Source: Lingula anatina (lineage: Eukaryota > Animalia > Brachiopoda). Taken from it: a stretch of DNA of 64,000 nt. Made by a program: the position numbers and the translations under genes. Under the pieces are notes generated by a model, which saw nothing but the letters and a program-made list of their open reading frames with translations, was not told where the DNA came from and did no database searches. The stretch covers positions 2,046,001 through 2,110,000 of the forward strand of contig CM120647.1 in assembly GCA_051362555.1 (NCBI GenBank), given 5' to 3'. Every line of letters starts with the position of its first letter. The first letter of the stretch is position 1. Positions 28 to 39,855 of the stretch are shown here, one piece after another.

Positions 28-183
28 CTCTGTCCACCATGTTAGATACTTCCACGGCCCTCCGTAGCTATTCCAGCTATAATTATTACGAGGCCTGCAT
101 ATAAAGTAGTCGTAATAGACAGAGAACGCTTGAATCACCAGCACTGTTAGATGTACCGCAAGTGGAACAGCCTTGGATGCCAT
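28..183 (-). CDS. AIG1/ADTRP-family gene, alternative first coding exon C (52 aa)
   Basis: Reverse strand reads MASKAVPLAVHLTVLVIQAFSVYYDYFICRPRNNYSWNSYGGPWKYLTWWTE then GTATAT (phase-0 donor). YGGPWKYLT matches the AIG1 motif YGGSWKFLT that carries the catalytic Thr. Not in the ORF track. Confidence 0.85.
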
Positions 184-1449
184 TTCACCACATACAACAC
201 ATATATAACTTATACCAGTATAGTAGTTGTGCTGGCAACAATATGTCTTCCTTTATCTCTTTTCTGATCAGTAATTTGCCTAAATTCCAGTCTCTCTTCA
301 CTGTGCTAAACAAGTTCTCTCTTCACTGTGCTAAACAAGTTCACACGTCTGAGTTATTTGTACACCATCTTCACAAAGTCAACAACAGGATACAGACATA
401 CACTAATGGGTTGATGACTTCTCCTTTAAGTATTTGATGTATACGTGTAATTTCTGTGACTCGATCTTTTCGTGCAGTAATGGAGAGACACCATGTGATG
501 TCAGCACGTTTCTTTTTCATTCAAATCACTTTCCTTATATAGTCTACTTCCAAGCTGTAAAACAATCTGATAGTTTCTCACTGTCTGTGGACTCTTTTTC
601 ACTACTTTTCAACTGCTAAGAACTTCCCGCATGAAAATATGTCATATCCTGACCAAACCTCATCAATGGTTTCAAGTGCCCATCACATCAAGCATGAAAT
701 TATGTAATACCAAACTGCTTTATTTTTCCAATGGTTGTGCAACATCAACAGTCTTCAATGCCTGCCACAGTAACAGTCAACTGTATCAGTAATTTCCACA
801 GCAGTGCACAACAGGTGACTTTTAACAAGTCTATGCAACAAAGTTGACAAATTTCTCCAGTTGATGTGTTGTGCAGACACCCCGCCTATATTACAGTTCT
901 AGTCAAGACTGTCTTCATGTACATGTACTCGTAGTTGATACTGTAATTCTCAGATCATCCTCTCTCTTATTATCAGTTATCACGGAATGCAACAATCAAA
1001 GTTCCTTCAAAATCTCAGAAATTCCTAATCTCCCTGTCTCACTGCTCCTGAGATATATACTGCATATACATATATCTAAGCTACCTGGACAAGCTATCGT
1101 CCACCTCAAGTCACTGTATTGTAACACTTGACTGCCCTGCCTGCATGTCTACATATATTACTGTCCAACCACAATATATACATATCACCACCTCATCTGT
1201 ATTATTTATACCTGTGGAGGTAGTGAGCAAGTGGTGCCACTTGTTTGTATTAGGAAGTAACTGACCTAGATCAATAAACCTTAATTATCCTATATATAAA
1301 ATACCTCTCTGGGTCCTGGAGACAGTCAATACACCCCAAAACACAAAACCACGTGGGAGAACATTAAAGCCTCCTCTCTCCCCCCCCCCCCCCCCCTTCA
1401 CACAGCTCAGTGCAAAACAATTATATACGTATTTGTGATTTCAATGTTA

Positions 1450-1686
1450 ACCCTTCACCATGTGGATCAAGGTCTTCACCCAACACCCTGTGGATCAAGG
1501 TGTTCAGTCCCTGCACCCTGTGTATCAAGGTGTTCAGCCCGCACCCTGTGTATCAAGGTGTTCACCCTGCACCCTGTGGGTCAAGGTGTTCAGCCTGCAC
1601 CCTGTGGGTCAAGGTGTTCAGCCTGCACCCTGTGGATCAAGGTGTTCAGTACCTGCACCCTGTGGGTCAAGGTTTTCAGTCCCTGT
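1450..1686. repeat. Minisatellite, 29-31 bp unit, about 8 copies
   Basis: Repeats of CCTGCACCCTGTGGATCAAGGTGTTCAG(T) starting about 15 bp inside the intron after exon B; explains the overlapping repetitive ORFs at 1410-1821. Confidence 0.9.
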
Positions 1687-1701
1687 ATTACTAGTACTCA
1701 C

Positions 1702-1848
1702 CAGGCCCCAGACTGTCAGATAGCGCAGCTTGTGCCAGGGGTTGTAGTCCTCCCAGCTGCCAAAATACACGTAGAGGAAGTCATAGATAGTTCCCCAGAG
1801 CTGAATCAAGAACAGGGTTAAATGAACTAAAAACGATGTAGCTGACAT
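1702..1848 (-). CDS. AIG1/ADTRP-family gene, alternative first coding exon B (49 aa)
   Basis: MSATSFLVHLTLFLIQLWGTIYDFLYVYFGSWEDYNPWHKLRYLTVWGL then GTGAGT (phase-0 donor); TM helix, YD, then K..YLT.W. Confidence 0.8.
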
Positions 1849-2349
1849 CTTCTTCAGCTCCTCCTACAATCCTGGTGTGATATTTGAAGTCAAGCTGCCT
1901 GCAATTGATTCTTGCTATTTTATCAACTGCAATACTATGTTATATTGATTAAAGTATTGCCTAGTCAATTATGATGTACTTGAACTAGTAACTGTATGGA
2001 TATCATATATGCATCATTTCACATACAGTGTGAGTCCCTTTCCACCAGATATGTCAGTATAACCTTGCCCTTTAGCCCTCAGAGCTTCAGTATACAGTCA
2101 GTCTGCCACCAAGACTCACTCTGATTGTCACCACCTAGCTTGCCTCCTTACTGACCAAAGTCCACTATCAGCACCTATATAATCATGTGTTCAATCTTAT
2201 CAATGGCTCTGCCCACACCTGCTGGCACTGTGTGTACACATATACTAGCTGGCTTTGTGTGTGTGTACATAGGCCTATATATAGTAACACATATATACTA
2301 GCTGTTGTATTGTCCACATGCAGTAAGCTGAGCTAATCCCCTCCTTCCT

Positions 2350-2492
2350 ACTCATGGCCAATATCCAATCAACCTTGATATACTGGCTGCTTACACAGTG
2401 TAGCTGTTAACTTTATGCATAGAACCATGTACTTGTGTCTCCATTCAACTGATTGGTTGGCTGACTCAGTTTGGATTGGATTGAATTGGCTA
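2350..2492 (-). promoter_or_regulatory. Candidate promoter/enhancer upstream of AIG1-like exon B
   Basis: Several CCAAT/ATTGG boxes and an AP-1 consensus TGACTCA at 2462-2468, about 600 bp upstream of the exon B ATG. Confidence 0.3.
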
Positions 2493-3076
2493 GAGGCAGT
2501 ATTTATTATCAAAGAGAAATTTATTGTCTGCTTTCCTTAATCGGAACACACAAGCCATATGTATAGCTGTATAGGGGGCTATAGTAAATTTATACTAAAA
2601 ACAAGTATTAAATACCGAGTATGTAAAAATAAATTAATTAAATCAGCAATATTATTAACATGAATTCATGAATTCCTATTAAATAAAATAGAATTTATCT
2701 AGTGCAAATATATGAAATTGAATAAAAATAAATAATGCATAAAAGTAGAAAGGAAAAAAAATATATTCATATTGGATAAGGCATGCATGCAAGAAGAAAT
2801 GAAATAAAACTCAGTGCATGCTGTATGTATGTTTTGTTGCACAGTAATTTATGCATTTTTGTGACATATATGAATTTACATGTGCACAGTATAAAATATT
2901 ATAAAAATGAAATATATAAAGGGAGAGCATATGGTGTGAATATTTCTGTATTAATAAATGAAACAAAAGTTGCAGTAGCAAATTTTGAAAAGAAGAGCAT
3001 GTGTTGCCTTTATTTTTTATATAAATAAACAATTCTCATGCAAACAGTGCTGGACCATGCATATAAATATACTTAC

Positions 3077-3208
3077 CATCCCCCAGTGGGTAAGAAACGC
3101 TAATTTTGGCAGTGAGGACACTTTGATGTACATGACGTCGTACACTAACGCGTACAACTGAACTAAAAACAGCATTAAATGAATTAAGGCTACAATGACT
3201 GTCGACAT
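3077..3208 (-). CDS. AIG1/ADTRP-family gene, alternative first coding exon A (44 aa)
   Basis: MSTVIVALIHLMLFLVQLYALVYDVMYIKVSSLPKLAFLTHWGM then GTAAGT (phase-0 donor); same HL..L..Q, YD and FLT.W pattern. Confidence 0.8.
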
Positions 3209-4300
3209 CTTTAATTTGCAACCCCAGACACCTAATGCAACTGTTTGAGAAACCCTGGCGGTCACGTGAATGGGATCACCTCCATGTAAATTGCACTGGG
3301 AAATCCTGATATTGGTCCGCGAAGAAAAAATAGATTTGTCATAAGTTAAACACAGTTTTACCAATCATCAAGCCCATGACGCTGCAGAGATGATTTAATT
3401 ATATATTGAAGGAGATAGTTTTATGTTACACGTAATCTTGCCAGGTTTTAGGTATGTTTTATACAAGCGTATTTATTTTTCCCCCGCCATAAGTCTGCGC
3501 TGCGGCTGGGATCTCCGTCATGGCCTCGATATGGGGGCGAATTACGCGGTAGTCCATGACGTCATGGAGGATTGCTTTGTCGAAGAAGAAATTCCCCTGA
3601 ACGGTACAGAAGAATTCCCCAGGATTACTCGACCAAAACACCGGCGTTTCCCCACAAAAGGTGTACCAATGTGAAGATAGGATATCCTTTGTGTTACAAA
3701 CATTGTTAACAGATATAGATACAGCGATTTTTGTCGACTTTTCGAGGCAAAACAACACCCCTTGAGCGCGATGCCACGTCGAAAAGCCGTGTTTCCCCAG
3801 TCCAGCAAAAGTAAGTGAATATTCGCATAAAATATGTCTTCGTCATTCGACATTTTTATTGTCAGTATCCCTGTCATCTGTAGATATGCGAGGATATTTC
3901 TGATAAGATAGATGTTGTTCTTGGGAAGCGCATTGGCCGACATTCCAGTCGGTTTGGGTGGGTTGGCCTTTTGGGATTCTCCTCCGTGAGGGGATCCTCA
4001 TTTGTATGCAGGGTTTTTCGCGCAAGGATTCCCTCACGCGCCCCTTCTTCCTCTTCCATATTCTTAACCTGGGCTAATTTATTATTTTAAGAAGATTAGT
4101 TCAAAGGTGATAATTCCGACTTCATGTCGTATTATTACACCGCAGAAATAGAGAGAAAATAGGACGTATGTTTGGGGGAATCTCGAGATTTTGATGACAA
4201 ATATGGCGAGCCCATGGACGGGTCCACCACGCCGATCTGGATAGGGGTGATGGGTTGTTCAAATGTTTTCCTGTTCTAATCACGTCGATATTTAGTGCGA
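3209..4300. promoter_or_regulatory. CpG-rich divergent promoter region between AIG1-like exon A and Schnurri exon 1, extending into Schnurri intron 1
   Basis: Divergent ATGs at 3208 (-) and 3771 (+); CpG retained locally; GTCACGTGA E-box 3261-3269; perfect 16-bp palindrome TCCATGACGTCATGGA (CRE) 3553-3568; kB-like decamers at 3298, 3588, 3611, 3973, 4175. Confidence 0.65.
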
Positions 4301-7300
4301 TTGTGTGACAATGTCATCATTCGATAATGACAGTTTTATTAACATGGACATTTGTTCCAGTATAACATGGCTTGATCACCAGTGACATTGTTGTTTGGCG
4401 TGAGGAATGTTTTGACCTTCTAATGTGCGCATTTCATAACACAGACGGGGGTCAAAGTCTGAATGTTTACTTTGGTTCTCGCTTTAAATACGGAGCTCTA
4501 GGACAATATTATCACTTTATCCTGTTGCAGGATGTTTATTTAGGGAAATACCTCATATATGTCTCACACTGTGTGGTATCCATCTGAGCCATTTTCATAT
4601 TATTTACAATTTACTAGTAAACAATCTCAAATGATTAACACTTTTGACAAGATTTGTCAAACCATTTGTGACAGTTTTATTATTGTGAGTAGTTTTGTCA
4701 ACATCATTAGTATGATTTAGTTCATCAATTTATTATAAAAACTAGAATTTGCTACAGAGGGGAATCACAGTTCAAGTATAGAGGTAGGAATCTACTCCTT
4801 CTAATGGACTCCTCGATCTTCAGTGTAGCTGTGGTTTTTCTAATCCAAAGGTTGTCATTCTTCACCACCACTAACAATGGAGTCAGCAGCTATATTTAGA
4901 ATAAGATCAGTGACACAAAAACTCCCAGTTTATCGTGAAGAGAAGTGGTTTTACTTTTTGGGCATGTTTTACTCTCAGGGATCCTGGACTGCTCTTTTTT
5001 TCCTTTGTCTTATTGCAAATATATCTTTGAGTATTTAAAAAATTAAATATTTTAATTTTCTTAAAAACTTTTTGCAGTAATGATTACATGGAACATATTT
5101 CATTGTGTCTCAGTGAATTTTTAAAAAAAATTATTTTAGAGGGGGGGGGGGCTGAATCGGCCATTTTGCCTAGGACAGGGATTCTTTTTTGATGAAATCC
5201 AATGACTAAGCAGAAAATAAAACACCAGGTGCAATTTCAGCATTAACCTACATAAAGCAAACTTCAGCCTTCAATATTGGAGATGGAACATCTAACATCT
5301 CCCAGACTGCACACTCTGTGTGGTGTAATTGATTATCTCACAGGCAGACTGACTGGGTATAACATCATAGTACAGGTCAAGGAAGAGATATAAAGTTATG
5401 AGAGTGAATCAGAGGTAGAATTTCACTATTGATTTGGGACCATTCAACTCCACGCTGCCATCAATATTAAAGCACTTGCTAGTACTAGTACTCCTAGTTT
5501 TAGAAGAATAATCTTCTTTTTTTTTTTAGCATATCATAATCCTGATTTCATAGCAAACTTACTTTTTAGAAACGTCCTATTGTTAATTAAATTATTTCAA
5601 AATTTGGTAAAATTGTTTAGGTGTCCAAGTTAAAATCATATAAAGTGGATCTAAAAATAAACTGTTATCAAGTTCTGCAGGATGCTTTGAGCTTTAAAAG
5701 GATTGAATAATTTCTGTCATAGGTTCCCATCTTAATTTAAGTTAAAATCAGCTTCAGCTTAACTGTGTTTAAAGGTCTCTTCTTGCATTTATCCCAATTG
5801 TTTTCAGTATCTCTTGCTGTAGAACTCCCGTTGATGTACTTAAATTAGTGATTGTGTTTCATCTAGTTTATTAGTATGTAAAGAGAAAGATATTGTATCA
5901 TATGTTCATTAGAGTTAAGTCAGGTGTACCCTGGGCTGATTTACACAAGCTGTCATGAGAGATTCCATCCAGAGAAATAAATATGGAGATCAGTCAGTTT
6001 GTAGTTGATTTCTGGAAACGTTAAGTTCTGCGTCGTTGTGTGATTTGTACACTGTAGTAAGCCCATTTGTATCTACTTGTTAAAATATATGCTATCTAGA
6101 ACATCTGTCTACAGTTTGACTAAATGACTTGTTAACACCTTAATACTAGTAAACATTTTATGACTTGTTAAATCACCCGAGACATCCACCAACAATTTGG
6201 CCATGTTACAGGCAGTGAGACTATTATCTCTATGAAGTATATTACCACACTGATTAGAGCTGACCATCCATGCACAATGACACTGTTGTACTAGCTTGAT
6301 TGATCCAACTGTGCAGGGACTTCAGCAGCACACTAAGACCCCATTTCCAGAGATTAGATCGATCTAATTTAGATCGACCTCACTCCCTGGGGGTTCACGC
6401 TAAATAGCTGTCAGCCGGGCGGACACGAAAGTTAATTACCCCCTTACAGCTTGTAGTAGGCGGGATGGACATTTAAGCCGGATTATCTGACAGTAATCCA
6501 GTGAGACTTCCCGCGGGGATAGATTGTTCTAAAAGCTCTGGGAATACAGCCTAAAGTTAATCCCCCCCCCCAGCTGCTTGTGGAGGTGTGTCATTCTGAT
6601 TGCATTCAGTGAGAGTTCCCCACAGAGTTGGATCGATCTATCTAGTCTGATAGCTTCATTGTGAATGCATCCCTACACAGCAAATACAATGACATAACAG
6701 TGGAGCTTATTGCTGTGGTAGCAGAGATGAGCTTTTTCCGTGGAAATGCAGAATTTCGCATTTTTTAATTCATTTCTGATGGTTCCTGAGATTTGTCAAG
6801 ATCTGCAATAAAAGTTTTGGGGAGGAGAGACAAATGTTCAGAATTTTTTTTTTTTTTTTTTTTTTAACAAGGCTCATGTCTGATGGAAGCAGAGTTTACT
6901 CAACAGTCCTGATTCATGATGTAGAAATTATAGGGAAAATTATTAAAAAGGCACTAGACAGAGATGGGGCTTGCTTTGATCACGGTCGATTCATGCTGTG
7001 TAAGCACCGTCGTGATTACAATGCCTTGCTATAGAAAGCAGAAGCCGTTTTCCGAGTCTTGCAAAAGATGGTCAAAATTTTTTTAAGTTTACATTGATGG
7101 ACATCTAATTTTCTCTGTGGGAAGACTGTCAAAAATGGAGGATGGTGCATAATGGGGAACATTTTGGAAGACTCACTGTCAAAAAATCTGTGTATGGATT
7201 CACCCCTGAATAGTGTCCTGTTTACAATGATGTAACCATACGTGTCTAAGTAAGCCGACTGTCTGTTCAAAACTTTACCTTTACAATTATTTATCCAAAC

Positions 7301-10300
7301 CTTTACAATTATTTATCCAGTGACCAATCCAGAGCATCATTTTCCTCAAATCAACACATCCAGGGTATTGTGAATTGATTTTCTAGCAGACTAACAGGAA
7401 GAGCTCCTGGTTTGCACACTGTATGCAGGGAAAATCAATGGTACAGGAATGAATTGTGCTAAATATTAAAAATGGCTTATGATTACAATTTTCAGTCTTG
7501 CTGAAGGAGCTAGACTAGCGATGGAGATAGCTGTACTACTGGGGGGGGGGGGGAACGCTGGAGGTACCTTGGATTTTACCTGGCACTTGCCCTGCCTCAT
7601 CTGCCTGATACAAAGCCTTCTCAGTGCTATTCGTTATACACCACAGGGGCCTTTCAGTCACTTCAGGGGGCCCCATATGATCTCAGCTTAATTCAATCAG
7701 ATTTTGGGGTTGATCTTTGCATTTGTATGTGATGATCAAAGCAGTGCATGTTTGTAAGAGACTTTCAAAATTACCTGAAGTTAAAGGGATAATAACTCTT
7801 CGTATGATATCTTTATTTTACAATAAAAACATTGTGAACAACTCATAGAAATATAATATATTGTGTTGTACCACAAAAACAGCAGTTATAGCTATTATTC
7901 TGATATCTGAGCTTGTCTTCAGATCAAGTGACTTCCATTGATGGCTGTACTCTGTTAAAATCTCTTAAGAGATTTTAACAAAAAACGAAACTTTTTAGAA
8001 AAAAAACAGGGACTAACTTAGAATGTAAAAATGGATTCATTAAGCATTGGTAAGTATGGGAAAATTGTTGTTTACTCCAGGAAAATTCATTTTTTGGCCA
8101 AAACAAAGAGTTTTTATCCCTTTAAAGTCAGTATAGTTACTACAGAAGTGGAAAAAGAAGTCTTATGGGTAGAATTCAGATCTGACCTTTTGGTTTGACC
8201 TTTGATCCAGATTTCAAGGTCAAGTATGGTTTTTGCATTTATATTTGCTAAAAATGATCTTATTTTGACTGCATTTTATAAACTTAAAGAGAAGCATGCA
8301 TGAATGAAATGGTATACAGTCATATCTAAGGTTTCCCTTGTATTCTTCAATTTGAGGTCAGAAGGTACATTTTCACAGTTATGTCAGATATCTTGCTAAA
8401 ATCGAAAACTCGATAGAACCTGTAGCTATATTTCTGTGCCTAAACTATAGTGGGTGGTGCATAACCTGCGGGCAGTTACGCCTCTCTGAGCCTCGTGTTA
8501 TGATTGTGATTGAGATAAACTGTCACCCTGAAGGTCAGAGGGTGTGTTTGATACACAGCAAGGGAGTTTATTGTTAATATTGTGATATACTGTTACTCTG
8601 AAGGTCAGAGGTTGGATACACAGCAAAGGTTTAATGTGTTGCTTAGTGCCCACACCTGTGATTATAATTACAGCTGCCCTGTGAGTCATGGGTCTATTTG
8701 TGCAGTGCATATGTAGTGAGGGGGGGGGGGGTGCCCATGTCACTAGAATAGAATATACATATTATCATCAATATATATGATTGCAGAAGACTACCCCCAT
8801 TGGCACCTGACAATATCTTTAAGACATGTGAACTAAGGGCTTATAATGGAGTCCACACTTCCACAGTGACAGATGGATATACTGTATGTGAATGATAAGT
8901 TCTAATAATTTATGTAGAGGTAGTTATCCCATATATCTATATTTGTTTACTGCCACACTGCTAAGAGACAGCTGTCATTTATATCCTCAGCAAACCCTTG
9001 ACAGCATGAAAGAGTAGAGACAATACAGACAACCTCATGTCAAGATGTGATTTATGCCCCCAGTCACTATTTAATAGGTGTACTAGTATTTGTCCACTAT
9101 AACAGCTCTGTTATTCTTGTCATAAGTTAGAATTAAAATAAGAAAAAAAATTGTCTACTCCTAAGTCAGTTGCTCAACCTGCCCCTGCAATCGAATTTGA
9201 TGTTTTACACCAGTTCTGATTAAATTATTGAGTTTTAAATGCATAACGGTTCACCAAAAGATTGAAGTGTGTTCTTGTACATTTCAGAAGGAATAAAATG
9301 AAAACATTGACACCAGGATCTTATTTAATGATATTCATTCTCGAACTAAGATCCATTTTTGAAGCAATAAAGGCCTGCTTTTAATTTTTCAGCTGGTTGA
9401 GAAGTATTCATTATCTTTTGATAATATCTCTCATTGATTCTCCATACTGTATGTTAAAAACACAACATAGAAATAACATTTATATGCTGTTATGAAGTTA
9501 CACTGTTGCCAGCAACATATCTAAAAGACCCTGGCTGTAATTCTATGAATAAGAAAAGAAAAATACGGTGTTTTTTATTACATTTCAGAGTCTGACTCAG
9601 ATGTCCAAGGTCAGGTTGACCTGGAAGGCCCCGGGTCAAAGGTCAGCAAGACAGAGGTCACTTCAGGTAATAAAATAAATAGATAAATAAAACAGATAAA
9701 TGTGGGCAACATTTTGTGCCATTTTGCTTTGTGTCCCAGTTGATTTAGTTTCATCTTATAATAATTGTACCACCAGCGTATCCAGAATTGTGCAATAGAT
9801 GATAAAAGCATGAAACTTTCCCCGATGAATAACCATTGGGTGTTCATCTATTTTGGATCAGGGGGTTGACAAACCCCCAATGGTCATTCATCGTGGAAAA
9901 TTTCATGCTGTTATCATCTTTTGCACAATTCTGGATAAAATTTGGACTGAGCCGCCTGACTACTTTTCACCATGAACTAAACTTTGCATATTTTGCTTCC
10001 CTTTCATATCCAAAACTGGCAGAGATAGGTCCATAGTTACTATTGGACTTGAATAGGAAGTCATATACTGGCAATCTAAATGTGACCTTGAAATTGACCT
10101 TTGACCTACTTTTCACCATGAACTAACCTTTGCAAATTTTGTTTCCCTTTTATCTCCAAAACTGGCAGAGATAGGTCCATAGTTACTATTGAATTTGAAT
10201 AGGAAGTCATATACTGGCAATCTAAATGTGACCTTGAAATTGACCTTTGACCTACTTTTCACCATGAACTGAACTTTGCAAATTTTGCTTCCCTTTTATC

Positions 10301-13300
10301 TCCAAAACTGGCAGAGATAGGTCCATAGTTACTATTGAAGTTGAATAGGAAGCCATACACTGGCAATCTTAATGTGACCTTAAAATTGACCTTTGACCTA
10401 CTTTTCACCATGAACTGAACTTTGCAAATTTTGCTTCCCTTTTATCTCCCAAACTGGCAGAGATAGGTCTAAAGTTACTTTTGAAGTTGAATAGGAAGTC
10501 ATATACTGGCAATCTTACTGTGAAATTGACCTTTCACCTACCTTTTGATGAACTTTTGATATATTTTTTTGCATATTTTGAAAATTCTTGTTGATTGCAT
10601 TTTTACAGCTTGTCAAGCAAAAAACTGGTGGCTGTGTCCCTTATTTTGTGTATGTGGGGGTCTATACGAATGCACTTGCTCCAGCTGGTGGTACAATATT
10701 CGGAGGCGGTATCGCCTCTCTGATCCTCTAGTTTAATGATGCTATTGGAATGGATGTTGAATATTAAATATTTAAAAAAATCCATGTAGATTGTAGTACA
10801 TAAAGTTTGGCGTTCGGTAGATTGAAAGAGTAGTTTTCTGAGATGAAAAAGACAACCATTTAGAAATCATTGCATTTTAAGATTGAGCTTTTCAGTTAAC
10901 AGGCAGTTTATTTTATTTTTTTAAAAATATTAATTAATTAATTTAATGATTTATTTATTTCTTTGTTCTGATAGACTTTTAAAGAAATAGAAGTAAAATT
11001 AAAATTTGAAAAAACATGACAAAGACAGATGATGTGGAAACATTGTATTTACGATTGAACATTGTCTGTGTTAGGTATGGGAACCAGGAGAAGAAGAGCT
11101 GTGAAGAAAGAAACAGAAAAGGCTGTCACACCAGGTGATGCAGATGTAATAGAAGAAAGTCCTGTCACCAAGGCAACCTCTGTAGTATACCTAGCTGAAG
11201 ATGGGTGTCAGGCAGTGAAAGGTCAGTGTTTAGCCAGTGACTCTTCAAATGGAGCTGTCACAGTCATAGTATTCCTGAAAGTTTATGTTGGTCTTCATTG
11301 TAGTAAAAATTGCTTGAAATGATTGAAACTAATATTTCATTGTCTTTGTGAGAGTAAGTGGCAATACTTCTTTAATGTTTTGTGAAAGTAGTTCTTAAAA
11401 CATTTTCAGTTGTTCCCACCCTGCCAAAGAAAGGAAGACCCCCTAAGAGTGATGGAAAGCGGGTTCGACCAAGCAGAAAAGGGAAGGCCCCCTCCCCAGG
11501 CAGTCTGGAAAAGAGGAACCTGTCACTGGAAGCCCTGCTGGAGGTTACAGGATCCGAGCTACAGAAAGTGAAACAAAGCCAGGACATTCAGACTGACTCC
11601 TCACCACAGTCTCAACCAGCTACACAATCTCCTGCTCAAGGTGGGGCTCAACAAACGCAATCAGCATTAGGAGCACAGCCAGCACAACCAGCTCAACTAA
11701 CACAATCTGTCAGCCAGCAGCCCTCTCAGCTGCAACAAGTGAGTGGTTCTATTGCCAAAAGAGTCGCTGGTCAAGCGGCCAACCCTCTGATGAACCAGAG
11801 ACCAGTGGTCAGTGCCATTCAGGCCAAGTTGATTGTGGACGCAGCATCCACCAACTCCAGCATTCCGGCCACCATGCCCCCTCCAGTGTCCACCAGCGTC
11901 CAGCAGGTAAGAGTGACCCTTGTCCAGTAGAATGACCCTGAGACTAAATGTCCAGGGTACTTTAAGGATCCTAGATTTGGGATACTCTAAGTCAAAGGAT
12001 TCCTGGATTTAAGGATTTTTTTGTACTGACCCACTTAGATCTTTGGTCATTATTTCGTATCATGTGTAGTACAAATATATGATGAGCTTGTCAGGATTGT
12101 GAATTACTATAAGAACTTCTATTTTAAAAGCATATATGTATGTATGTTGGCTGTTTTGTCAATATTGTCATTGCTGATACAGTTCATGTTTTGAAGCATA
12201 TTTGTCTTAAAAGAGCAGCCATGGGTTGCAGGTCTTACACTACAGTTTTAGACACACTTAAAACCATATTTTCAATATTACATTTTTCTAGGTTGTAAAA
12301 ATACAGACAGGAGAAAGAGGCGTAGAGAAATACGAGCTGAAGTCAGAGACCCTGGAACAGCAGGGGCTGAAGCTGATCTACACCAAACACACTGCAGATG
12401 AGCCAGGGACCCCTTTGGCTCCCCCTGGACACCCAAGGAATGACATCATAGGGATCAGGCCCATGGTCCCCCTAGGGCAGTCTCCTGGCCCTGGTCTCCC
12501 GCCAGCTCTAGGTAACTAGTCTATGATGATATGTGACTTTTACACTGCCGAGAATAAGCTCTTAATTTGTCACAAGCAGCACAGTGATGGATGGGAATCT
12601 GTGTGTGTAGGAAAGAGTTCATATTCCTGACATTGTCTACTAAATGAAGCACTGTGGAAGTGTTTTACAGATTCTAAAGACGGAAGTTTACTTAACATAA
12701 GTTATCATTATATGGTTCTTAAACAGAGATAAGAATTCAGATTCCTGGCATTGTCAGCCACAGGGTGGTCTATAAAAAATGACCTATTCAAAATTGAGGT
12801 GGAAAGTAAAATCACTCTTTTCTTATGGACCACCCTGCAAATAAAATCATGTCTGATTCACTGTAAGACTTTCATTTCTTCCTTTCCCAGAGACGCCCAG
12901 GATAGGGCCAGGCAGGAAGAGAAAGCACCCTCCCAAACCAGGTAAACATATCTGTCCATACTGTGGCCGCGGATGTGCCAAACCCAGTGTGCTACAGAAA
13001 CATATCCGGGCACACACAGGAGAGAGACCATACCCTTGTGTGCCGTGTGGCTTCTCCTTCAAGACAAAAAGTAACCTCTACAAGCACTGCAAGTCCCGCT
13101 CACACCTGGTCAAAGCAGGCAATGCTCCTCCGTCTGGAGACGGGATGAAATTAGAGGATGGAGACAACATGGAGGATGACAACATAGAGAGTGATGAAGT
13201 GGAGAGTGATTCTGAAGGTGACTCCGCCGGAGATGATAGCCTGGATACCAGCACAACCAGTGAGACTTCGATATCAGAGACAAGAGTTTCTGGGCTGACA

Positions 13301-16300
13301 TCAGGTGTCACCGTGGAAACCAGTGCCAAAGAGAGGCTGCAGCAGATGATTCAGCAACACAGGGCCGCAGTTGCCGCCGCAGCAGGAACACAGCAGAGCA
13401 TTCCGCTGGGGCGGAGTTTGTCCAGTCAGGGAAATGAAGTTATGTCAGGTCACAAGCCTGGAAACGACACTTTGACTGGTCAAAGGTCAGAGGTAAAGCT
13501 TACAAACTCTAACAACCCATCTCTGTCCACCCGCGTGGTCATGACAGAGAGGCAGTACTATGACATTGTGAACCCTGGAAAACCTTCACCCCAGACTGTC
13601 TTGGCAAATGCACTGCCATCTGGTGAAGGTCTGGAGATGCAGTATAATGTGTATATCCCACAGAGTGCAGGTGGGACAAATTATCAGAAAATTGAAAAAA
13701 CTTTTTTGAAATATGAGAATGACTCTGTGAACAGTATGGGGAACTCTGAACATTTAATAAGTCAGCCCACTGCTGCAGGAGGACTTGACAGTGGGGAGAA
13801 AGCTGCCGAGAAATTGCTCACAAGTTCAGTGGAAACATTACCAGATAAAACTGTGAAAGTCACAATTCAAGTTGCTCAAAAACCAGGAAGTGGGGGGAGT
13901 GGCAGAAGCACACCCAACACAATCAGGCAGGACTCCTCTAACACAATCAGACAAGACTCCAGTTCTTCATTACCAGAGTCCAATCTTGACACCACATATG
14001 CTGTGTCAGAGTCTCAGATCACAGAGATCCTGCCTGCAGCCAGTAAGGACCCTAAAGCTTCAAGGCCGGTGGACCACAAAAACATGACCCCTGAAATGCT
14101 CAGCGAGCGAATTACTCAGCTTATGGCTGCCAATCAGGAGATTGTTAACCAACCAATGGTGGAAGGGCCACGCCCAAAGATATCCCGACAAAATAGTGTG
14201 TCTAAAAGTGGGGGGTCCACCCCCCTGGGGTCTAGTTCCCCCAGGGTGTTACAGCTGCAGGGAGGGGCTCATCCTCTCTCAGTGTCTACTTCCAGTCAGA
14301 TGGCTGGGGCGGGCTCCCCCAGGGTGGTCCACATACAGCCAGGGACACACCCCCTGAGTCTAAATACACCAACTCACATTCCACCTTCCTCAAACGGCAC
14401 CACAGCACCCAGTGCCCCAATAGTTAAACCTCCCACTGGAAACCCTCCCCAAACCCTGGAACCACATCATTTTTTAGGGGTGGGCGGGGCCTTGGGGCGA
14501 CCTCCGGACAAACTGGGTCAACCTGACCCTCAAGGCAAGCATTCTCATGGAGTGCCCAGTTTGCTGGATCCTCAACAGATACAGCAGAACCTCCTCCAGA
14601 CTATGGAGACTGCAGGCAGGAGTGGCGCTGAGACACACACATCTGATGTTCTCTCCACAACGCCACAGGAGATCAAAATTCAGATTAAACTGGGGAAATC
14701 TGTGGTATCCTGCCAATCAGGAGGGGGTGTGGCATCAACCAGCCAATCAGGAGGAGGCGTGGTGTCAGCTAACCAATCAGAAGGGACCAATGTAGTGATT
14801 AGTCAGGTGGGAGGACGGCTGTCTTCATTATCCGAGTGTCAATCAACAGTTCTTCCTTCTGCGAGTGTGTATTTAACCAAGCAGGCAGCAGGATCCCCAT
14901 CTCTCCTAAGCTCAATGATAGCTCAGCCAGGATTGGTCACTCCTGCTCTGTTACAGACAGCCAAGAGTGCACTAGGACAAGGTCAAGGTCAAAATATGAA
15001 TACTGAAGCCCAAGGTCATTTCATGGCTGAATCGTGTCAAAGTCAAGTGATGACCCAGATTCAGGTTACTCCAGATTCACTAAGGAAAGGTCAGATGACA
15101 AAACCACAAGTTATATGCCCCAGCCATGTTCAAGGTCATGTGTCAGAGCAGCATCACCCAGTTTCAGTCGCTGTCAGTGTGAGTTCTTCTAATAATTCTG
15201 ACTCTGTAGTCACCAGTGGTGGTGGTGGTGGTGGTGGTGTTATGAGTCCAGACCCTTCACAGGGGAGTGTTATCAAGGACCTTCTTCTCAAGGGCAGGAA
15301 CACGGCGGCCCATTGGGTGGCGTCCAGCATACGGCAGAGTGGTACCACAGTGCCAGTCCAGCCATTGGGGGAGGACGTGACCAGCAGTGGAGTACACACC
15401 CCTCTGGACAGCTTTGGGCCCTATCACTGCACAGGCTGCAACACTTCATTCCGTAAGCCAGAGACCCTGGCCATGCACCGAGGCAACTACTGCACAGGTG
15501 CCAGCATGCCCCAAGATGGCGGCATTCCTGGGAGCATGGGACTTGTGAGTTTGGGAGAACAAGGGAGAGATGCCACTCTTGCCTCTGAACAGAGGGTGGC
15601 CAGAGAAAGGGCAATAATTCAACGGTTTTTTCCAGAAATTACTCCAACTCAGGGCATCGTACCCCCTGTGTCTACCTCGGCACCTGCAGCATCAGCCACC
15701 AGTACCACAGCAGTGCCATCTGGTGAGGATTCTGGTGTTGCCGATGGAAGTGCACCCAGGAAAAAGGGAAGACCTAAAGGTTCTAAGAATAAACCAAAGG
15801 ACAAGGATGGAAATAAAATAAATGGGCCATTACAGATATCAGTGGCTCCCTCTAGTGGCGGGTGTGGTGTGAATCTGATTGGGCAGTCCTATGTTCAAGG
15901 TGAAGGTCAGGGATGTGTTATAAAGTCGGTGGACACTACAGGTGTCACAGCTACAATAGCGCGCCAGGATTCCAAAGAAGGGACACGTCCTCCGCCGCTT
16001 AATATAGCACTGGCACAGGTTGCAAGGGATGCTGGGATAGCAAGTAACACAAGCTCTCCTGTTACACCCAACACGGGAGAAGGGACTCCACAAGCTCTGT
16101 GGAAGCTTAGGTTGAAGGGAAAACTTTTAATGCGAAGGTCGATGAGTGTTGAAAGAATGCTATCACAAGAAGGTGATAAAAGTGCCAATAATACTCCAAC
16201 ACCAACCAAAGTTGTCAGTACCTTGACATGTCCACTGCCACCTGAGGCACCAAAGATACATGCAGTGTCATCTTTAATGGGACATGGTTCAAAAACCCTT

Positions 16301-19300
16301 CCATTGTCATTTTCTTCTGATTCAGTAACTTCAGATGGTAACAAGGGCAATACTAGTGACAATACAAGATTAACTAAGGTCATAGAACATAGCCGCAGTA
16401 AACATTGCCCAGGGACTGACAGCAGAGATGATTCTATTACAGACTCCATTCTGGTCAGTGCAGGTCCACTGTCTTCACAGAGACGGAGACTGAACAGTGT
16501 GTCCCAGGTGGCCAGTCCCATGATTCCTCTGGCTCAGGCAGGGCTCATGCCCCTCCGTGCTGGACGGTTAGTACAGGGCGGTGAGAGCACTTCTGTGAGA
16601 TCTGTCTCTTCATCTCCTAACATGAGTTCTTTAAACATTGCGACAAATAGCGGCAACCAGTTGTCGTTTCCTGCACTTCCTCTAACGACGCCTGTGGCTC
16701 ATCCCCCATTGCTACCCCAAGCTATGATGATGCCGCCTATAGGCCGTGCACGATGGCGCCCTGATTCAGCAACAGCAGAATTACATTCTCTGTCTCCAGG
16801 AGCCGCTGCAGGTCAGAGGTCACAGGTGACAGGTCAGAAGTCACCAATTACAGGTCAAAGGTCACCTGTGAAGATTTCTAACGCGGGCACCCCAGTTACT
16901 CCTACTACCCCAGTGACAGGTCAGATGTCACCAGTAGAGGGCACCACATCAGGTCAGAGGTCAGTGATAAGGTCACCAACAGAGGGCACCTGTGGAGAAG
17001 ACAGCCCCAAGAAGTCATCTCCACAGGCTGCTAACTTACTTCTTGTGTTACTGGGTCACAGTTACCCCAGTCTGCGGGCAGACACACACACCAGCTTCTG
17101 CTGCGTACAGCGACCACAACCAATGTACGTGAAACAGGGACATAAGAAAATATCCATGTATTCCAACTGGCAGACGGCCTCCATCAATCCTATCCCTGCA
17201 GGCCTCACTACTGCTCAAATGCTTGCTTTATATGACTCACGTCAGTGGATTATCTCCACTCCGACTTTCATGATATCTGCACTGTCAGAACCAAAGAAGG
17301 GGTTGCTAACACATTCCAGTTACTGGAACTTCTACAGCAAGCAGAGAGAGGAGATGACACAACAGGTGGAGACACTGTCACAGCACAGTCAACTGACTCC
17401 ACAAACCGTGGATCCACATAAAACTCAGCCTGAAAACCAGGGGGAGACACTTCAGCAAGATAAGCTGGTAAAGGCTGTGACTACTGAAACGTCTGTGAAG
17501 AGAAATGGAGATTTTGACACTGGCAGAGATTCCACTGGCGATACAGTTGAAATTAAGATGGAGGTCACTACACCTGTCAAATCAGAGACTTCAGAGTCCT
17601 CATCACAAAGCCTCAGTAGTGGACATTCTGGCCATTCTGGTGACCTTGACATGACCCTGACCCCTGCTAGCTCCAACAAGTCATTCACTGGCGGCTACGT
17701 GTCCAAGGAGGAGTATGTGTACATCAGGGGGAGAGGCAGAGGGAAATATGTGTGCGAAGAGTGCGGAATTCGCTGCAAGAAACCCAGCATGCTGAAGAAG
17801 CATATTCGGACGCACACAGATTTCCGTCCCTATCACTGCCGCCATTGCAACTTCTCGTTCAAGACCAAGGGGAACCTGACCAAACACATGAAGTCTAAGA
17901 CACACCATAAGAAGTGCATGGAGCTGGGCATTGTCCCTGTCCCCGTCACCGTGGACGACTCCCAGATTGACCCCAGGGCACTGGCCAAACAGATTGAGGT
18001 CAGTAACAGTTTCCTTATACAACATAGTACTAATCTAAAGACAAAATATATTAAGTCTCACACTGGACACTTATGTTTTTTAAATGAATTTTTCCTTTTG
18101 AACAACACATCTAGGTGAATTGTAATTTACATTTTGATGTAGCTCTATGTCCATATCACAGTGTATTGTACTCTCAAGGGTCCTGTGCAAAGGATTTCTT
18201 AAGTCACCATTATGCCCCCATATTGCAGACTCTAGAGACCTTTACCACTCTTTAATGTAAAGTCTTAAAATAATCACAACTTGAACCTGCTAGGTTTTAG
18301 GGCCAGTTAGTGCATTTGTGTGGGTGTGGCACTCATAAAAATGTTAGGAAAATTAAGGTGAAATATCTCCTTGATGAAAACATGGAAAAAGTTACTGAAG
18401 AAGTCCGATCTGAAATCATTTGTGGAGGTTTTCATTTTCCTTGGATATATCCTTTGACCCATTTTTCAGAGTCTATTGGGGGATTTGATTTCAAGTTTAG
18501 GGTTAGCAATTTTGCTCCAGCTTTGTTTCCTAAAGGTCATGAAACTATGCACTTAGTCCTTTATTGTGATGTTACCTAAATTGAAAACTCTTTAGAACTC
18601 AAAACTGAACTAAGGGAAATGTGTTTTTGCTGAAAACTTTTGGATCACGAAGAACAAAAAAAGACCACATGTTCATTTTTTTTTTAATTTTTCAGATTTC
18701 CAAAGAAAGTAAAATCATTGAAGAGGAGAATGGTTCAGATGAGGACGGTACAGACAATGACGAGGATGATGAGAGTGACGAGGAGGAGGAAGACGAGGAC
18801 TCCAGTGACTGCGATGGTCTCCTCATTGATGAGGAGCGTGAGGATGAGGATGTGCGAGGAAGACAGCATGAGAGGAAGATTGGAGTAGTGAAGAGGCCAC
18901 GGAAGAGAGTGGAATCTGAGAGCAGTGTTGGGAGTATGCCCAAGTGAGTATCAGTGTGTATTACACAGGGGGGGGGGGGGGGGATATTCAGGATTATACA
19001 GTGCCCGATTTCAGGATTTTCATTCTTCATTTTGACCTTTTTTTAAAAGTCTACATGCCATGAGGAATTGCAAATGTGTGTGTTCAGGATTTTCAGTTTT
19101 TACAAATTTCACCCATGGTATTGATTGTATGGTTATTCACACTTCATTGAACCTACCCTGTCCTGCTGTGCCGTGTATCATGGTCACTTATACATGTACA
19201 TATGCAGATGTATACATTCATGTGACCCCCCTCTTTCTCACTGATGAGGAAATTTGAGGTTTTTAAATCCTTTTCAATGGATTTCAAACTATTTAGGGAG

Positions 19301-37858: not shown

Positions 37859-39855
37859 CACTGGCTTAATCGCACTATGTGATATTTCCCCATTACTGAC
37901 AGATATAAAGGAATAAACGGACATGTATATACTCTGGTCCTTATACACCCTCAATGTAGAAGCGTCAGTGTACATTGGCATACATGCACTCAGGGAGAAA
38001 TAAAATGCTTTAAACATGTTCAAAACAATGTTTTGCGCTGCTTATATCTTCGTTTTAACACGTTGGAATCGAGTGTTGGGAGATCGAATATAGCAATAAT
38101 AACGGTTTAGAGAACAAATAATATTTGATAAATTTACTTCAGTAGAGAAGGGGTAAAAAGGATATTGATTGAAGTTGCTGTAAGCCCCCGTAGAGGCGTT
38201 CAAAAATTGTGCTACCGTCGGTATTTCACGACGTCAGCACGGGGTATTGGGTATAGTTTTCAACTAGCAATAACCACGCCTCGGATAAACCTCATTGGCT
38301 ATGGTACCGCCACTGCGCAAAGCTGATGAATATGGGTTTCTTCTACGTTTTTATACAAACGCAAGCTACCTTTCACAATGGTGTTTCATGACTACAACGT
38401 AAGAGAAGCAACGCGTATAATTTCACATTGTATTCAAACAGAATAATGGTAACAAATATCAGACAGAAAACTATTTATTCTTAAAATTGATTTCTGACAA
38501 AAAAGCTCTTTTAAAACAAACATTAGAAAATTCATGACAGACGTCCTGTTCTTCATGAAGTGTTGGTTCGCTGCAGTCTGACTAGTTATTCTCCTGAGCC
38601 TGGAGCCTGCCATCATTGGGACAATTAGACGCACAGAACTCTCTTTACGTCTAATTGGTCTAATGGCTTATTCAGATCGACAAAGGATAGAAAACCAACC
38701 AAGGTGTGTTCATTAATTTAGGTCTCGTGTCTGGAAAAGTGAAGCGGGAGCAGGCTCTCAGTAGCTGTTCGTACCGCCTTTACTTGTACCGATACCCAAT
38801 GATCAAGTGAATTTCCACGCTGACGCCTGCAATATCCCGGAAGTCAGATCTTGCAAAATTCGAGAGAGATTTTTTGCGATTGTTACAGTGTAATGCCCCC
38901 AATAATGTCCTGTTCCGGAGAGAATAATGTACTTAGTAGTTATGGTCTGTCATTCGTACTTTGCAGAATGTAATTTTTCTTAATCTCCCAGAGTGTCGAA
39001 ATCATGTTCACAATCTTTTTAAAGAATAATAAAATAATAACAATAGAAGGATGACATAACGGGCTACATGTACAAGGCAAAAATGTTGATCTTTATAAAG
39101 TGAAAACGTTTTATTTTTACCTAATCCATACTCTTCTTCCAGCCTGTGCCCATATGCGTATTGCAGGCGGTACGAAAAGCTACTCTGAGCCTACCTCGCT
39201 TCATCAGACACTTTTCCAGGTATCTTAAGAGGTATAGAATTGACTTTTTTATAAGCACGTTGGACATTAGGAACCATAACATGTCAACGTAAGCAATGAT
39301 AAATCTTATTTCATATTAATTTTAAGGAAAAAAATATCCTTATATCAAGCGGGTTATTGCTGGGATATTTTTCTGGATGTATTCGTCTCCTTATCCCGGT
39401 GATAAGATGATATACCGGTATTAAGAAAGAAGTCCACTTTCTGTTCCAAAAATTATATTATTTCTCATTCAGTCATCGCACTGCCAATACGATTCTCAAT
39501 TGAAAAGTACAATTAAAATCTTTCAGGTAACTGTCTTGAAACTCTGGAGGAAACTGCCCGAAAGTAATAACTTGAAAATAGCTACTTGAAATTATCTGTA
39601 GCTGACAGCAAGTGAATTTAGGGACTGTTCACATGGAAAATCTATTTTCTAAAAATCTAAAAATCTATTTGCGGTATCTTGTGATCACGGTCTGTGCCCT
39701 GAATACCCCACGGCGTAATTACTGGCAGCGCTAGCCAGTTACTTCCAAAGCTGTAATTAATCATCGGCGCTGTGGGTTAGTATATAGGACGAACCTGTAC
39801 AATGTAATGGGAAGCGGACTACGGTTCCTAGCGGACTTCCATTCCCGTTTCACCG
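37258..39855. repeat. Local duplication block A (collinear with 52390-59353)
   Basis: 37931-38700 ~ 53052-53820; 38811-39275 ~ 57456-57921; 39277-39620 ~ 58546-58983; 39774-39855 ~ 59258-59353; same order and orientation. Confidence 0.85.
38730..39220. mobile_element. About 490-bp non-autonomous element with imperfect TIRs
   Basis: CTGGAAAAGTGAAGCGGGAGCAGGCTCTCAGTAGCTGTTCGTACCGCCT versus AGGCGGTACGAAAAGCTACTCTGAGCCTACCTCGCTTC...CACTTTTCCAG. Confidence 0.55.

Follow-up and report, generated by a model that had tools for sequence, protein, structure and literature searches.

An AIG1/ADTRP-family gene of Lingula anatina with alternative first coding exons that carry the predicted catalytic threonine

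The window analysed here is a stretch of 64 kb of Lingula anatina DNA, in which three small minus-strand coding exons, spaced 1.23 and 1.52 kb apart and designated A, B and C, belong to an AIG1-type gene that lies head-to-head with a HIVEP/Schnurri-type zinc-finger gene (3560-35760, plus strand). The positions of the main features are given in Table 1. Each of the three exons runs from an ATG to a phase-0 GT donor located exactly four codons past a threonine codon (Thr40 of exon A, 3091-3089; Thr45 of exon B, 1716-1714; Thr48 of exon C, 42-40), and the exon/intron junctions read ATG/GTAAGT, CTG/GTGAGT and GAG/GTATAT, respectively. This arrangement was the core of the original prediction, and it was confirmed at these positions, with all three frames intact. 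The peptide of exon A comprises the first transmembrane helix (TM1), a short loop and the start of TM2. At the DNA level the exons are 55-63% identical, and all three peptides share M, H-L, Q, Y-D and L-T-x-W; the motif HL..L..Q, which had been ascribed to all of them, holds for exons A and B, whereas exon C has Val at the Leu position.

Table 1. Main features of the analysed window (positions are those of the window)
Feature	Position	Strand	Remarks
Variable first coding exon A	3077..3208	-	44 aa, head of RefSeq isoform X5
Variable first coding exon B	1702..1848	-	49 aa, head of RefSeq isoform X4
Variable first coding exon C	28..183	-	52 aa, head of RefSeq isoform X3
CpG-rich stretch	3301..4500	.	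observed/expected 0.92-1.22
First exon of divergent transcript	3560..3810	+	start approximate
Large open frame of HIVEP/Schnurri-type gene	12857..18118	+	PDB match 1bbo

The pattern used as a chance control (ATG, [YF]LT.W, two codons, GT) occurs three times in the window, solely at exons A, B and C, and twice in total in 1181 block shuffles. A tblastn search of the 64 kb with 191 AIG1-family proteins gave strong matches at the same three exons only and detected nothing of the constant body of Lingula, in agreement with the earlier reading that no constant AIG1 exons lie between the heads, as the peptides of the variable exons are called below. The heads are tandem and homologous and share one donor phase, as in a first-exon cluster. 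In a Pfam search, the exon C peptide alone matched Far-17a_AIG1 over profile positions 2-41 (E 0.0012), its 18.8 bits being below the curated PF04750 cut-off of 24.5, and the exon A and exon B peptides alone gave no match.

Some peculiarities of the individual exons were also observed. Exon A encodes a His directly after its Thr (3086-3091, minus strand), which is the case in 4 of 254 heads and resembles Cys123-His124 of TMEM164; it also lacks the usual Gly ahead of the K-F-K motif, and it is the one exon that was covered in every RNA run. A minisatellite with units of about 29 bases (1480-1680) begins just past the exon B donor.

A profile made of the three peptides retrieved one longer protein among 210 candidates, isoform X3 of the Lingula anatina androgen-induced gene 1 protein-like, and isoforms X1, X2, X4 and X5 were retrieved via the cluster of isoform X3 and a second search (RefSeq proteins of the locus, XP_013383835-39). 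Isoform X5 starts with exon A, isoform X4 with exon B (two residues different) and isoform X3 with exon C (one residue different), and all five isoforms end in an identical suffix of 186 residues that includes the His of the catalytic position, so that the three heads are annotated on one constant body, as had been proposed. The full-length isoforms X2-X5 matched PF04750 with 183-212 bits (cut-off 24.5; E 7e-54 to 1e-62) and isoform X1 carries a precomputed Far-17a_AIG1 domain; together with the match of the exon C peptide, the scores of isoforms X2-X5 bear out the family assignment. The five heads share 25-49% identity in pairs. Two of them, those of isoforms X1 and X2, also bear the Thr and are absent from the window; since the 61 kb on the right are devoid of any match, they most likely lie to the left of it, where further variable exons had been anticipated. 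Almost certainly, then, the locus represents one AIG1/ADTRP-family gene with alternative Thr-bearing first coding exons on a shared body. For the exon A protein there is a further RefSeq accession, XP_013409416.1, on another contig, which may represent a second locus or an uncollapsed haplotype. The constant body has Asn at the position Thr+7, where 108 of 115 relatives have Gln.

Eight of nine RNA runs, with coded labels, each read in part (6-26%) and giving low depths, were examined; runs X7 and X8 come from animals more divergent than the others. Reads spliced from the exon A donor to exon 2 were present in run X1 (8 reads), run X2 (4+3), run X3 (5) and run X8 (7), and their part beyond the donor encodes LINTFYFGIA, with which the shared body begins. 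Eight junction reads of run X8 connect exon C to the same exon 2 sequence. The exon A and exon C junctions of this run bear an identical silent letter, different from that of runs X1-X3, which fits a single exon 2. Thus, the expectation that transcripts join each exon to the same exon 2 was confirmed by reads for exons A and C, and for exon B it has the support of RefSeq isoform X4, no exon B junction being among the junctions listed for the eight runs; the joins of the isoform X1 and X2 heads come from the RefSeq proteins as well.

Reads covered exon A in 8/8, exon B in 7/8 and exon C in 6/8 runs, and they reach upstream of the ATG in each exon; those on exon B might stem from introns of transcripts that start with exon A. 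In run X1 the depth was 10.9 on exon A and 0 on exon C, and in run X7 it was 0.9 on exon A and about 12 on exon C. Tissue-specific use of the exons is suggested by these values, and it is left at a suggestion because of the low depths, the coded labels and the greater divergence of runs X7 and X8. Neither joints between exons A, B and C nor start-site peaks were among the features listed for this low-depth RNA. The variants listed for exon C comprise seven silent and four replacement changes and no stop, as compared with 22% silent sites (p = 0.003). Run X2 alone has a depth of up to 7 on the AIG1 strand at 1060-1320, between exons B and C. In runs X7 and X8, positions of about 250-1000, on the upstream side of exon C, are covered. 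The reads in these two places might come from a long leader, from a repeat or from an exon that is not coding.

The CpG-rich stretch extends over 3301-4500 only, and exon A is the one head beside it, for which reason a two-way promoter likely serves both exon A and the neighbouring gene. In the stranded runs, reads fall on opposite strands on either side of about 3400-3500. The loose ends of the divergent reads at 3810 match the window at 9594, the next exon beginning from about 9588, and we infer that the first exon of this transcript is the 5' end of the HIVEP/Schnurri-type gene. The best single-stretch PDB match of the large frame of this gene was 1bbo, MBP-1 (E 4e-31). According to passages of the AIG family phylogeny (PMC8394805), AIG genes adjoin HIVEP-like genes in lamprey and cartilaginous fish, and the AIG1-HIVEP pairing is therefore likely old.

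The recurrence of the switch in other animals was followed in protein records rather than in genomic DNA. Twenty protein clusters picked for containing several records yielded 28 species sets, a sample biased to multi-isoform loci, and in 27 of them a body that is identical from Thr+5 is combined with two to six different heads that bear the Thr, the exception being Mizuhopecten with one head. When Lingula is left aside, the switch occurs four residues past the Thr in 26 of 27 species sets. Besides Lingula, the sets include bivalves, gastropods, Owenia, two hemichordates, Patiria and the beetle Agrilus, and nine further sets, each within one insect species, came from another search (beetles, mosquitoes, orthopterans and a gnat). 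Heads less than 70% identical were found in 34 of 38 shared-body groups (254 of the 300 proteins had a usable head). In other species the pattern recurs under single locus tags, and we infer from the records that the other genomes may also carry tandem first exons. A variable-head set was not found in one lizard cluster, which was the vertebrate cluster examined. The original prediction treated the architecture as an isolated case; the same swap is widespread in invertebrate protein records and was already implicit in RefSeq. In bed bugs, 14-31 FAR-17a/AIG1-like genes are described, nine of them in a tandem cluster (in the part of PMC11824892 that was available).

AIG1, ADTRP and AIG-L (PF04750, Far-17a_AIG1) are described as Thr/His membrane lipid hydrolases in the available parts of PMC8394805, 10.1101/2022.07.06.498872, PMC11139994 and PMC8123165, and T43A and H134A are catalytic mutants of mouse AIG1 (PMC11139994, same part). 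T40 and H128 of isoform X5 align with T43 and H134 of lizard AIG1, and in 115/115 aligned proteins the Thr and two His are conserved without exception. The model of isoform X5 (pLDDT 94.2) has a six-helix membrane core in which exon A makes up the helix 3-27, the loop and the first turns of the helix 39-60, including the Thr; in the model of isoform X2 (pLDDT 92.1) the loop is longer. Most outward positions of helix 1 vary freely across the 115 proteins. We know of no natural substrates of AIG1/ADTRP outside mammals.

The best structural match of the isoform X5 model in a VIA search was TMEM164 (9lw1; Z 14.1, rmsd 3.3, 185 aligned residues, 8% identity). PDB sequence searches revealed no AIG1 relative, Foldseek yielded no match with an E of 0.001 or less, and no solved AIG1/ADTRP structure was found in the PDB searches. 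Like AIG1, TMEM164 has a dyad of a nucleophile and a His in the same fold as the isoform X5 model; unlike AIG1, it is an acyltransferase with a Cys nucleophile and seven helices that belongs to a different Pfam family. Its catalytic and metal centre consists of Glu106, Cys123 and His124, its dimer interface is TM2, and 7 of the 8 residues named for the bound acyl chain are located well past the nucleophile (available part of PMC12830759). Mapped by alignment end points and not residue by residue, the swapped exon would correspond to the part of TMEM164 with the catalytic group, and the constant body to most of the acyl-chain residues. By this analogy, the location of the acyl residues on the constant side would argue against a choice of the acyl chain by the head.

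Mollusc heads fall into two classes, short and long, both of which persist across bivalves and gastropods. In the short heads (22/22) the distance from the Asp/Glu that closes helix 1 to the Thr is exactly 19 residues; in the long ones (n = 30) the corresponding distance is 25-30 residues, and 23/30 have Asn in place of the acidic residue; a Fisher test of loop length against Asp/Asn was set aside, the rows being related. Profiles of the two classes assigned all 32 held-out mollusc heads to their own class. The head of isoform X2 scored 79.7 bits on the long-class profile vs 37.1 bits on the short-class one, while held-out long heads scored 57.9-75.9 bits on the former. Deuterostome, insect and vertebrate heads were assigned to neither mollusc class (43 bits at most), and with insect and deuterostome heads fitting neither, the class profiles lend no support to a single origin for all phyla.

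In a tree of 93 rows, which uses 53 columns only and leaves out five short or truncated heads, isoform X2 joins 34 long heads of bivalves and gastropods (support 98/91), and inside Lingula exon A pairs with exon B (99/96) and exon C with isoform X1 (98/89). An AU test rejected the grouping of bivalve heads as one clade (p = 0.005), and a Lingula-only origin of the five heads was not firmly rejected (p 0.127 and 0.057). In the first tree, three of four per-species AU tests were not significant, with two of the three mollusc species borderline or negative, and in smaller trees the long/short split was weak or open. Since isoform X2 groups with the mollusc long heads, the array, and with it the long class, likely predates the split of brachiopods and molluscs, with local duplications coming later. 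Such an array may evolve by birth and death of exons atop at least one exon class older than this split.

Taken as a whole, the locus is probably best read as one gene with swappable Thr heads, likely with separate promoters and likely encoding differently tuned lipid hydrolases. Each head would supply the first predicted membrane helix, the loop and the predicted catalytic Thr, and would join the one shared body, the choice being made at the start of transcription; separate promoters for the heads are a favoured component of this reading, and a biochemical difference between the isoforms is a plausible one, held with less assurance. The Thr-His chemistry and the acyl pocket would be kept. What would differ around the nucleophile are the loop, the Asp/Asn that closes helix 1 and the residues directly following the Thr, so that swapping of heads may tune the access, the head-group side or the rate. 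A broader version is put forward tentatively, at somewhat below even chances: throughout the invertebrate phyla, the choice of promoter would exchange an active-site cassette that arose before brachiopods and molluscs separated and that may even go back to the origin of animals, with long-loop/Asn and short-loop/Asp heads serving different lipid substrates or reactions.

The invariance of the Thr and His might also be reconciled with an entirely regulatory role, in which the exons are modules of a promoter and a start for each tissue or stage, the heads have drifted within the limits of the fold and the enzymes are equivalent. The mostly C-terminal acyl pocket of TMEM164, the differing exon use among the runs (mostly exon A in run X1, mostly exon C in run X7) and the CpG-rich stretch that adjoins exon A alone would agree with this. 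It is considered unlikely, since drift alone is a poor explanation for the persistence of two head classes with a fixed loop length and a linked Asp/Asn; the AU rejection of a single bivalve clade also speaks against it, and the runs in question have coded labels, low depths and, in the case of X7 and X8, more divergent animals. Still less probable is that the heads bear on how the protein assembles or where it is located, and not on catalysis, helix 1 being a surface for a dimer or a partner and the isoforms pairing or trafficking differently: by alignment end points the dimer interface TM2 of TMEM164 does correspond to helix 1, the outward positions of which mostly vary freely, but TMEM164 is only 8% identical and the word 'dimer' does not occur in the available part of an ADTRP review (PMC8123165).

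Finally, automated annotation might have merged tandem or haplotype copies with near-identical bodies, or included exons that are not functional. RefSeq models are computed and not curated, the constant exons lie outside the window, and the second accession of the exon A protein on another contig would be expected of such copies. Set against this are the lack of a body exon between the heads, the three intact frames, the reads of run X8, which lead from both exon A and exon C to one exon 2 variant, and the recurrence of the pattern under single locus tags in other species, which make an origin from several genes highly improbable, and one gene with swappable heads is the reading retained here.

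The Lingula gene is similar to the described AIG1/ADTRP genes in its Pfam match, six-helix model, Thr/His at the positions of T43/H134 and HIVEP-type neighbour, and differs from them in having several Thr-bearing first exons on one body. Clusters of variable first exons with constant exons are known for UGT1, UGT2A, GCNT2 and clustered protocadherins (available part of PMC1885805), and chelicerate Dscam is a 5'-cassette system (available part of PMC4835542). As in UGT1, UGT2A, GCNT2 and the protocadherins, tandem homologous first coding exons lead to one constant set here, with birth and death of the variable exons; unlike in UGT1-type clusters, the small variable exon of AIG1 has about 45-60 codons, which specify a membrane helix and the nucleophile and not a whole domain. 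UGT1 variable exons also carry a catalytic His, and thus a catalytic residue in a variable exon is not unique to AIG1. The Ugt1, Gcnt2 and Ugt2a organisations have been called vertebrate-specific (PMC1885805, same part), in contrast to the AIG1 layout, which is spread over invertebrate phyla.

Both the AIG1 family and the variable/constant design are known, and the Lingula isoforms are already in RefSeq; new in this analysis are the read junctions of Lingula, the comparison with further phyla and the two ancient classes of heads. No description of alternative first exons in the AIG1 family was found in literature searches, subscription papers and supplements being outside their scope, and none of variable first exons in the passages of the AIG family phylogeny, for which alternatively spliced sequences were left out before analysis (PMC8394805). 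Genome-wide exon lists may include the fly AIG1 gene; CG3625, CG11601 and CG6149 are not mentioned in the main text of PMC3228551.

A handful of clusters with homologous variable first exons are known, the enzyme examples having been described as vertebrate, and the protein records examined here reveal the same design in brachiopods, molluscs, an annelid, hemichordates, a starfish and insects, one class of heads being traceable across two phyla. If the proposed reading is true, an enzyme cluster similar to UGT1 has been hidden in plain annotation, and its heads amount to a mutational map of the AIG1 active site made by nature. With five such heads on a single body, the roles of helix 1, of the loop and of the residues next to the Thr could be tested directly. 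Family surveys with one isoform per gene overlook this diversity of heads.

Several other features were observed in the remaining part of the window. Two pieces of a voltage-gated potassium channel gene (BTB_2 and Ion_trans) are located at 39828-42292 on the minus strand. A Cys-rich open frame (60126-60524, minus strand) had no Pfam match at E 0.001; it presumably recalls prokineticin- or Dickkopf-like domains. A 68-base satellite in about 38 copies and 20-base tandem arrays occupy 45912-48500 and 55218-57222, and the 20-base arrays form opposed inverted arms with a spacing of about 1.5 kb.
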